Positions 56,401 through 58,688 of a DNA stretch of 64,000 nt are shown here, one piece after another. Position 1 is the first letter of the stretch, and each line of letters starts with the position of its first letter. Position numbers: made by a program. The DNA is from Escherichia coli (lineage in GTDB: Bacteria > Pseudomonadota > Gammaproteobacteria > Enterobacterales > Enterobacteriaceae), in assembly GCF_044324785.1 (NCBI RefSeq), contig NZ_CP172127.1; one strand, 5' to 3'.

Positions 56401-58688
56401 CCGAGACGAACAGAGCGTAGAAGGCGGCAACCGCGCCTGCTTCGGTCGGTGTAAATAACCCCGAACGGAAACCGCCAATAATAATTATCGGTAAAAAGAG
56501 CGCCCAAATACCGGAAACTAAGGATTGCCAGACTTCCCGCAGTGAAGCTTTCGGCTGACAAGGTAAATTCAGTCGTTTTGCCTGCCACCACCAGGTAACC
56601 ATCAGCGTGACGCCCATCATGATGCCCGGTGCGATGCCCGCCATAAACAGTTTGCTGATGGAGAGTCCGCTGGAGACGCCGAAGATAATGAGCGGAATAG
56701 AGGGCGGGATAATGGCCGCAATAATACCTCCAGAACCGATTAGTCCGGCGGCGCGGTTTACCGGATAGTTGGCCTGACGCATCATCGGCACCAGCAGCGC
56801 GGCGACAGCTGCGGTATCAGCAACCGCAGAACCGGACAGGCTTGCCATGATCATCGCTGCCAGCACGCCCACGTAACCCAGACCGCCTGGTCTGTGGCCC
56901 ACCAGTTTCATTGGCAAGTCGACAATACGTTGCGACAGGCCGCCTGCGTTCATGATCTCACCCGCCAGCACAAAGAAGGGAATGGCTAACAGGGAGAAGC
57001 TGTCTGCGCCATTTACCAACGTTTGCGCCAGAATCTGGACATCAAAGATATCCATCCAGAACATCAATGAGATGCCGCACAGTAATAATGCCCAGGCGAT
57101 GGGAACGCCAAGAGCGATAGCCCCTAACAAACTGACAATAAATATAAGGATTGTCATCGTCAGGCTCCTTGTTGTTTTCGGCTGGGGGTATTTGTGAACT
57201 GCCGGTATAAGTGACGCAATTCCAGCAATGCGATAATCAGACTGGTGGGGATAGCGGCGGCGTACATTAAGCCAACGGGGACGCCAAGAATGGGCGATAA
57301 GTTGCTCCAGTCTTGCGCTGTTTTTTCTATAGCGCCCCAGGCCAGCCCCAGACACAGCAATAAAATGAGCGTATGGGTTAGCAGCGAAACACGTTGTTGA
57401 TTAGCAGGTGAGAGTTTTTCGACTAAAAAAGTAACCTGCACATGGCTGTTGTCCATATAAGCAACGATTGCGCCAATAAAGGTTAACCAGACAAATAAAA
57501 GTCGGGATAATTCATCAATCGATAATATACTTGTGTGGAATCCATATCGAAGAATGATATTAATAAAAATAATACAAGACAGTATTGCGATGATGATCGC
57601 AAGAATGCCTTCGAGTATCCGTTTCATAACGAGTCCTTCTTGTTATGCTATATGTTTTCATTAATTGATATTATTGGTATTCGTAATATTTATTGGAAAG
57701 CGACTAATCAGAGATTCAATGTGCTATTTAAGTGAAACGGATTAACGAGATTCATTCAGAGAGTGAATGCCGTTACGTAATATTTCTATTCGATGTTGTA
57801 CATCATCCTTCGCATTTATTTCGAGCAGCTTGATGCCAGCAAAATGCAATGTTGACGGTTCTGCTACATTAAATAACTCGCGAACATGATCTGTGGTCAT
57901 CAGGCTTTCTGCGCAGAATGGTGCAAACGGCGCGTGTAAATCCTGCCATTCTCCGTATGCTCCGTTTAGCGTCGTACCAGAGAACATCAACGCGCCGAGT
58001 TTTCCGGCTTGTTTCGCCATTTGGGTGTGGGTCAGCGGCAGCGTTGTATTGCGCCCTTCAATGGCAGAGCGCGCCCAGTTGATACAGATGCTGATGTCAT
58101 AATCGGTAATAACTTCCAGCACATTTTCTAAAGGCAAAAAGCCTTTTCGGGGGGAAGAAGATGTCATGGCGTCGCAGTGTTCCAGCACCAGCTTGCACGG
58201 CCAGTCCCAACTGGCGATTTCTTTCAATGAGCGGGCAAAAGCATCCGTCGCCTGCATAACATTAGGATTCGTTGCTAACGGTGCAGCCTGGAGCTCCAGT
58301 GCGAGCACTTTATTAGCCTGCAATGCGTTGATTTTATTGAACAGGTGGCGATAGTACGCCACGCAGGCTTGGCGCTGTTCTTCATCACTGGAGGCGAGAC
58401 CAAACCCGCTGTTTTCGTTGCGGCGACGCATGGTTTCCATCACTGCGGTGACGACAAATTTCCAGCTCTCTGGCGTATGACGGAGTAACCATTGATCGCC
58501 AAGAGGGTGGAAGTTTTCCAGGCAGGGTTGTTCCAGACCCAAAATGTCTGGAGTCTCAGATAATTGTCGCCAGAAATCCTTCTCTTCCTCTTCACTTCTT
58601 TGATGAAAAGAAGGTGCACAGGGATACGCGCCGATAATATAACCGGCATTATTCGTTTTCATTATGTGCTCCAGTAATAACTTTTTTA

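Follow-up and report, generated by a model that had tools for sequence, protein, structure and literature searches.

By the literature and established knowledge, the yia/sgb operon directs conversion of oxidized ascorbate (2,3-diketo-L-gulonate) to D-xylulose 5-phosphate by YiaK, LyxK, SgbH, SgbU, and SgbE; import in this pathway is by YiaMNO. The textbook route was worked out in Escherichia coli K-12, a lineage without yiaX1. The yiaKLX1X2PQRS operon of Klebsiella pneumoniae (Campos et al., J Bacteriol 190:6615, 2008) is reported to be coexpressed with, or required for, aerobic use of L-ascorbate. Its third gene, yiaX1, has been said to code for "a chemotaxis-like protein" (PMC4324149), and a 2026 study of E. 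coli bacteraemia lists a "Putative protein YiaX1" (PMC13322237). We analyzed 64,000 nucleotides (nt) of E. coli contig NZ_CP172127.1 (RefSeq assembly GCF_044324785.1; hereafter, the window), in which a 306-amino-acid (aa) open reading frame (ORF) at positions 57742 to 58662, minus strand, lies between yiaL and yiaM. This ORF is yiaX1, a member of family DUF4862; it is most parsimoniously read as an ancestral operon gene that K-12-type E. coli lost, and it most probably encodes a barrel enzyme acting on a sugar acid.

The initial annotation, made from the sequence alone, had placed this ORF between yiaL and yiaM in the orientation of the operon, and the gene is real: it appears in our ORF listing, it matches Pfam DUF4862 (PF16154) over its full length (E = 4.5e-94; score, 315.6; residues 9 to 294 against positions 1 to 291 of the 291-position model), and its ratios of nonsynonymous to synonymous substitution (dN/dS) are 0.06 to 0.10. 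The only other Pfam match, AP_endonuc_2 (E = 0.26), was not significant, and neither NCBIfam nor PADLOC gave a family for the ORF. The earlier statement that no family was recognizable does not survive the Pfam result, nor the RefSeq annotation "DUF4862 family protein" in more than 1,000 complete E. coli genomes, including those of strains Seattle 1946, PMV-1, and M1/5. The initial annotation had itself named, as a refutation, a known annotated operon member of defined function in reference strains. The gene is indeed already known as an entity, through Pfam, RefSeq, its Klebsiella name, and many reference genomes, but its function is undefined. In the literature searched, we found no mention of DUF4862, PF16154, or STM3670, and no paper joining diketogulonate, "xylose isomerase-like," and ascorbate.

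We consider the identity and orthology of the gene as yiaX1/DUF4862 essentially certain. The gene order in Klebsiella (yiaJ divergent from yiaK-yiaL-DUF4862-MFS-lyxK-sgbH-sgbU-sgbE, where MFS is a major facilitator superfamily gene; loci L003, L004, and L038) matches the published yiaKLX1X2PQRS operon; the name was mapped to the gene by this order and by PMC4324149. The K. pneumoniae protein belongs to the same Pfam family, is 74 to 75% identical over its full length, and is encoded by the third gene, directly after yiaL, in an operon that shares its flanking catabolic genes and its divergent yiaJ with that of the window. The two operons differ in transport: yiaX1 is followed by the tripartite ATP-independent periplasmic (TRAP) transporter genes yiaMNO in the window and in Salmonella, whereas Klebsiella has the MFS gene yiaX2. 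Identities to orthologues are 93% in Escherichia whittamii, 90% in Escherichia marmotae, 86% in Escherichia albertii, 78% in Citrobacter koseri, 76% in Salmonella, and 74 to 75% in Klebsiella (99% of length). An exhaustive HMMER search recovered 553 family clusters at 50% identity.

Conservation of gene order argues that yiaX1 is an original part of the operon. Our scan took a single genome for each species and gave 409 loci that encode a relative, the best 80 of which we searched with the window Yia proteins. DUF4862 occurred together with yiaK in 73 of the 80, and yiaL, adjoining DUF4862, was present in 71 of these 73 yia-type loci, in the nearly constant order yiaK-yiaL-DUF4862-transporter-lyxK-sgbH-sgbU-sgbE. 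Such loci were found in Escherichia (E. whittamii and E. albertii), Salmonella, Citrobacter, Klebsiella, Raoultella, Kosakonia, Enterobacter, Lelliottia, Kluyvera, Buttiauxella, Hafnia, Rahnella, Budvicia, Gilliamella, Serratia, Brenneria, and Succinivibrio and, beyond Gammaproteobacteria, in Martelella (an alphaproteobacterium) and Silvimonas (a betaproteobacterium). Salmonella has exactly the window order (yiaK-yiaL-DUF4862-yiaMNO-lyxK-sgbHUE); C. koseri has the MFS version of the operon, and most other genera carry yiaX2 where the window has yiaMNO. All three of E. albertii, E. whittamii, and E. marmotae carry the gene. Pairwise dN/dS values of 0.099 (E. whittamii), 0.063 (E. albertii), 0.060 (Salmonella), and 0.087 (Klebsiella) fall within the range of other operon genes and indicate that purifying selection maintains the gene across Enterobacterales and in more distant bacteria. 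Beyond that order, rearranged versions of the operon occur (Silvimonas terrae, L085; Succinivibrio, L082; Tolumonas, L084 and L087): in S. terrae a separate yiaL-DUF4862 pair stands beside an inverted yiaK-yiaX2-lyxK-sgbHUE block, and in Succinivibrio yiaK-DUF4862-lyxK-sgbH occurs without yiaL and with a divergent TRAP system.

Within E. coli, megablast with the gene alone found it in 1,055 of 5,426 complete genomes at 94 to 98% identity, always as a single, chromosomal, full-length copy, whereas the yiaK/yiaL side of the locus is present in 4,994. The initial annotation was right that yiaL and yiaM adjoin each other in K-12: in strain DH1 the two genes are separated by a 117-nt spacer, and blastn found no K-12 counterpart of window positions 57639 to 58701. 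The K-12 spacer holds no gene remnant above chance (blastn-short, MAFFT, and tblastn), and the window segment has no mobile-element signatures around it, its flanking repeats being only 10 to 15 nt, the level expected by chance; its G+C content (49%) is like that of its neighbors. The absence of insertion signs, the neighbor-like G+C content, and the remnant-free K-12 spacer support an ancestral origin. Because the gene holds the same operon place across so many genera, the parsimonious reading of these comparisons is that the operon originally had it as its third gene and that the lineage(s) from which K-12-type E. coli descend lost it. Thus, of the earlier description as an "extra enzyme or accessory factor," the enzyme part gains backing from the fold described below, but the gene is not an extra: the K-12 state appears to be the derived one, a conclusion that is new here.

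The locus is arranged as follows (yiaL and yiaM were named by NCBIfam, and the remaining operon genes after their RefSeq annotation in E. coli strain N3, accession NZ_CP031609.1):

51180-54877, minus strand: lyxK-sgbH-sgbU-sgbE, the distal catabolic genes (N3 and DH1 annotation; ORFs)
54881-57627, minus strand: yiaM-yiaN-yiaO, TRAP transporter, 3' of yiaX1 (N3 annotation)
57160-57627, minus strand: yiaM (NCBIfam equivalog NF007374; E = 2.9e-89)
57628-57741, minus strand: AT-rich (30% GC) spacer of 114 nt that separates the stop of yiaX1 from the start of yiaM, ending in the yiaM ribosome-binding site AAGAAGGA
57742-58662, minus strand: yiaX1-type gene of the DUF4862 family, 306 aa, predicted xylose-isomerase-like TIM-barrel enzyme (ORF listing)
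58663-58685, minus strand: yiaL-yiaX1 spacer of 23 nt with a GGAG Shine-Dalgarno sequence at 58669-58672, 6 nt before the ATG (read from the sequence)
58686-59150, minus strand: yiaL (DUF386; YhcH/YjgK/YiaL family; NCBIfam TIGR00022, E = 3.8e-62)
59162-60160, minus strand: yiaK, 3-dehydro-L-gulonate 2-dehydrogenase/2,3-diketo-L-gulonate reductase, first gene of the operon (N3 RefSeq annotation; ORF)
60362-61210, plus strand: yiaJ (plaR), IclR-type operon regulator, divergent (N3 annotation; PMC6958661)

The 306-aa ORF is intact and has the same orientation as yiaK, yiaL, yiaM, yiaN, yiaO, lyxK, sgbH, sgbU, and sgbE; it is part of the yia/sgb transcription unit, as had been proposed, and its tight 23-nt spacing from yiaL is consistent with cotranscription and translation within the operon. 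The AT-rich stretch at 57628 to 57741, however, does not precede the gene, as the initial annotation had it; because the gene is on the minus strand, this stretch lies downstream of it, leading from the yiaX1 stop codon to yiaM. Conservation of the spacer is confined to Escherichia except for the ribosome-binding site of yiaM, which is the only part kept in Salmonella, Pseudocitrobacter, and Affinibrenneria. An Rfam scan of the spacer yielded no family (its single match, SNORD10 at E = 0.88, is a chance one), promoter-like sites in it were no commoner than expected from shuffled sequence, and its terminator-like matches were mainly antisense.

Structure prediction, which the initial annotation had suggested along with Pfam analysis, assigned a fold to the protein. 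From the 553 clusters we chose an alignment of 62 family members, down to 29% identity, as input for AlphaFold2. The resulting model is of high confidence (predicted local distance difference test score [pLDDT], 96.2; predicted template modeling score [pTM], 0.93) and consists of eight strand-helix units. Foldseek matched it to L-rhamnose and xylose isomerases in the PDB (E of about 5e-9; template modeling score of about 0.65) and, in AFDB50, to DUF4862 proteins only. Because of this model and these matches, we regard the fold as essentially certain, at the level of prediction: a cytoplasmic (beta/alpha)8 barrel, or triosephosphate isomerase (TIM) barrel, of the xylose-isomerase-like superfamily. 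Sequence and profile searches of the PDB found no relative (a bacterioferritin match at E = 0.18 is due to chance), and no member of the DUF4862 family has a solved structure.

Seventeen residues are invariant among the 62 sequences (Y13, E44, G88, A90, P128, E161, H162, D164, K173, N195, W196, R198, S228, D241, H243, P245, and K278), and the window protein carries all of them; C163 is kept in 61 of the 62. In the model, the invariant residues lie at or just past the C-terminal ends of strands 1, 2, 5, 6, 7, and 8, as well as within the loop that follows strand 7. The face formed by the C-terminal strand ends is the catalytic face in such barrels. We also modeled the window SgbU with AlphaFold2 (pLDDT, 86.7); its invariant E153, D183, H209, and E255, which correspond, as in UlaE, to the canonical Glu-Asp-His-Glu metal ligands of the superfamily, lie at the ends of strands 5 to 8. 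Ligands were mapped by strand positions because hhalign profile alignments were not significant, and the SgbU residues came to stand opposite E161, N195, F227/S228, and K278, in a register that may be off by about 1 residue. We infer from the models that only the first canonical metal ligand is retained and that a lysine takes the place of the last. Because the tetrad reads E161-N195-(F227/S228)-K278 in DUF4862, catalysis probably proceeds, if the models are correct, via a remodeled center comprising E161-H162-C163-D164, D241-x-H243, K173, R198, and K278. Three invariant basic residues, K173, R198, and K278, fit an anionic substrate.

This residue pattern would set DUF4862 apart from the described enzymes of similar fold. 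The L-xylulose-5-phosphate 3-epimerases SgbU and UlaE, which are AP_endonuc_2 barrels, are about 12% identical to the DUF4862 protein, their profile match is not significant, and they differ from it in the DUF4862-specific invariant set (EHCD, DxH, K173, and R198). Xylose and L-rhamnose isomerases are 10 to 14% identical, show no sequence-level match, and are longer (about 390 to 430 aa against 306 aa), with a C-terminal helical extension that DUF4862 lacks. The binuclear-metal ligands of Streptomyces rubiginosus xylose isomerase (E181, E217, H220, D245, D255, D257, and D287; sequence checked against the PDB) have as counterparts, by manual strand register, E161, N195, R198, S228, D241, H243, and I277/K278, so that most ligands appear not to be conserved. 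The OtnI (YgbM) and Hyi isomerases, which interconvert 2-oxo and 3-oxo acids, show no detectable sequence relationship to DUF4862 and appear to differ in their set of metal ligands; the analogy to them is tentative.

What the enzyme acts on is suggested by its neighbors. YiaX1 is encoded next to YiaL, and another member of the YiaL family, YhcH, is a cytoplasmic anomerase that provides the next enzyme with Neu5Ac, a 2-ulosonic acid, in open-chain form (PMC8141875). Distant DUF4862 genes of marine bacteria (34 to 40% identity; L012, 7001-8011; L014, 7001-8023; and L098, 8001-9011) lie in glycan clusters. A recurrent module there, CTP_transf_3(+cupin)-SDR-DUF4862-cyclase(PF04199)-SDR-DHQ-synthase-like-2-hydroxyacid dehydrogenase-GFO/IDH/MocA-SIS, sits inside biosynthesis clusters of the polysaccharide or nonulosonic-acid type; its CTP_transf_3 protein is of the CMP-ulosonate-synthetase type, and NeuB is encoded nearby. 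A Colwellia homologue (L097, 8001-8963) belongs to a sialic-acid or mucin utilization locus that further encodes a NanM mutarotase, a protein like DHDPS/NanA, the enzymes NagA and NagB, an M60-like protease, and a TonB receptor. The common denominator of these contexts is 2-keto (ulosonic) sugar acids.

Because of the adjacency to yiaL, the ulosonic-acid contexts, the YhcH precedent, and the three basic residues, we propose that YiaX1 is an accessory enzyme acting on an open-chain 2-keto acid derived from ascorbate. An enzymatic role in the yia pathway is likely. The best explanation of its biochemistry, to which we give a little better than an even chance, is that it is an enzyme, rather than a chemotaxis or regulatory protein, acting on an anionic keto sugar acid from oxidized L-ascorbate. 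As the candidate substrate we propose 2,3-diketo-L-gulonate or a closely related compound, for instance 2-keto-L-gulonate, which would enter by YiaMNO (or, in other genera, by YiaX2). YiaL, as a member of the YhcH anomerase family, might then provide the cyclic 2-ulosonic acid in its open-chain form, on which YiaX1 could carry out enolization-type chemistry, such as keto-group migration or epimerization; the superfamily offers precedents for this in OtnI and Hyi, which isomerize 2-oxo/3-oxo acids, and in the epimerases SgbU and UlaE. The outcome would be a form accepted by YiaK and LyxK, made directly or recycled from side-products, and the product would pass via SgbH, SgbU, and SgbE to D-xylulose 5-phosphate. 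Such a step would be accessory and nonessential, widening substrate range or raising efficiency, because K-12 lacks the gene and the core 2,3-diketo-L-gulonate pathway is assigned to the remaining enzymes.

Several observations weigh against this proposal. Profile comparisons bear on the superfamily assignment: hhalign of the family profile with SgbU (as a single sequence or as a 13-sequence alignment) and with xylose isomerase gave probabilities of at most 1.7%, aligning only a 28- to 33-residue motif after strand 3 (FGLASxDxxxR in one partner), and Pfam, hhalign, and PDB searches all failed to yield a significant match to AP_endonuc_2 or to any superfamily member. The ligand mapping is a secondary-structure register of two AlphaFold2 models, not a superposition. 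The neighborhoods of the Microbulbifer and Microbacterium homologues and of one metagenomic homologue were uninformative, and we found no literature defining an activity for the DUF4862 gene; the specific reaction, suggested by analogy, is held tentatively and has clearly less than an even chance of being correct. About 81% of complete E. coli genomes lack the gene and can thus dispense with it, and it encodes the fastest-evolving protein of the operon (median identity, 70%, against 78 to 90% for the others). Finally, the copy in strain N3 is annotated as a frameshifted pseudogene (L001, 8742-9562). The sole indel in N3 is the loss of one base in a C6 run corresponding to window positions 58149 to 58154 (G6 on the plus strand), and the frameshift may be either a genuine slip or an assembly error.

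The last three of these points would be expected if yiaX1 were a decaying or functionless accessory gene, perhaps a horizontal insertion in some E. coli. Synteny and selection contradict that reading, because the gene keeps the same position in 73 species-level loci from many genera, is carried by all three Escherichia relatives mentioned above, and has low dN/dS; moreover, its family-invariant residues are all intact, and it has neither a deviant G+C content nor flanking repeats or mobile-element signatures. We therefore consider decay very improbable. Still less credible, to the point of being negligible, is a role in chemotaxis or signaling. It derives from legacy names on Klebsiella and E. 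coli entries in UniRef and AFDB ("Chemotaxis protein, resembles CheA"), and the phrase is repeated in PMC4324149. Pfam finds DUF4862 only, with no domain of the CheA, CheW, or methyl-accepting chemotaxis protein type, and NCBIfam finds no match; the protein is a single predicted TIM barrel with enzyme-like invariant residues, encoded among catabolic genes. Domain content, fold, and context thus contradict the label. Both that name and "UDP-N-acetylglucosamine pyrophosphorylase" occur, without support, on DUF4862 proteins in our set (P0052, P0071, and P0114) and in AFDB (A0AAJ3NWP2, J2II10, and A0A656XVY3).

Two other kinds of enzyme deserve more attention. An aldose-ketose isomerase of the xylose/rhamnose-isomerase type could convert L-lyxose or L-xylose to L-xylulose, feeding LyxK, SgbU, and SgbE and bypassing YiaK and SgbH. 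The top structural matches are xylose and L-rhamnose isomerases, the latter converts L-lyxose to L-xylulose, and the operon encodes an L-xylulokinase (LyxK). However, at most positions that match the binuclear-metal ligands, by manual strand register, DUF4862 appears to have residues other than Asp, Glu, or His (N195, R198, and S228); in addition, the profile match to xylose isomerase is not significant, the three invariant basic residues point to an anionic substrate, and the gene travels with yiaK, yiaL, and acid-sugar transporters, not specifically with lyxK; we think a neutral-sugar isomerase unlikely. A dehydratase, lyase, or similar enzyme, detoxifying or salvaging a compound into which dehydroascorbate or 2,3-diketo-L-gulonate breaks down spontaneously, instead of serving as a main-line isomerase, has superfamily precedents in IolE, AsbF, the 3-keto-glucoside lyases, and UxuA. 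Nothing specific speaks in its favor, and the constant place of the gene, directly behind yiaK-yiaL, speaks for a part in pathway entry and not in salvage; we give this possibility a minor share of probability, about twice that of the neutral-sugar isomerase.

An enzyme acting on a keto sugar acid thus remains our preferred explanation, and it can be carried further, in a form that we consider doubtful. YiaX1 would then represent an undescribed enzyme type in the xylose-isomerase-like barrel, with a Lys/His/Cys/Asp center (E161-H162-C163-D164, D241-x-H243, and K278) replacing the metal tetrad, and would provide, together with YiaL, a missing entry step on open-chain 2-ulosonic acids. Its substrates would be 2,3-diketo-L-gulonate or 2-keto-L-gulonate in enterobacteria and a CMP-activated ulosonic-acid precursor in marine bacteria. 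If this were so, the textbook K-12 yia pathway would be a truncated version, which might be a reason for poor use of oxidized ascorbate by K-12.

In any case, yiaX1 is a conserved, selected gene at the pathway entry in most Enterobacterales, for example, Salmonella, Klebsiella, Citrobacter, and Enterobacter, and in about one-fifth of complete E. coli genomes. Assignment of its reaction would complete the route by which gut bacteria use oxidized vitamin C and would give a function to a family of more than 550 clusters. Alongside the derived state of K-12, the fold assignment, the noncanonical ligand pattern, and the ulosonic-acid theme are new here; they provide a confident fold, a list of residues for mutation, removal of the chemotaxis label, and a link to 2-keto sugar acids, with which the range of substrates to be screened becomes narrower.

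The window also bears on diversity within E. coli. Its yiaM-sgbE segment (51045-57638) is 90.1% identical to that of DH1, while the yiaL-yiaK-yiaJ side (58702-61500) is 96.1% identical; by these identities, E. coli appears to have two deeply diverged distal-yia haplotypes that coincide with the presence or absence of DUF4862. To the left of sgbE (46726-51148), an AraC-family regulator (50333-51148, plus strand) is intact, as in N3, and the window and N3 also share an MFS transporter gene (48707-50107, minus strand) and a GH127 glycoside hydrolase gene (46726-48744, minus strand); in K-12 this block is reduced to pseudogene fragments. The window is 99.0 to 99.4% identical to N3 where compared (1-20000 and 40000-61500; 99.0% over 50001-61500) but only about 96.5 to 97.2% identical to all other complete E. 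coli genomes, which suggests, as far as sequence identity can tell, that it comes from a divergent Escherichia lineage with one complete representative.

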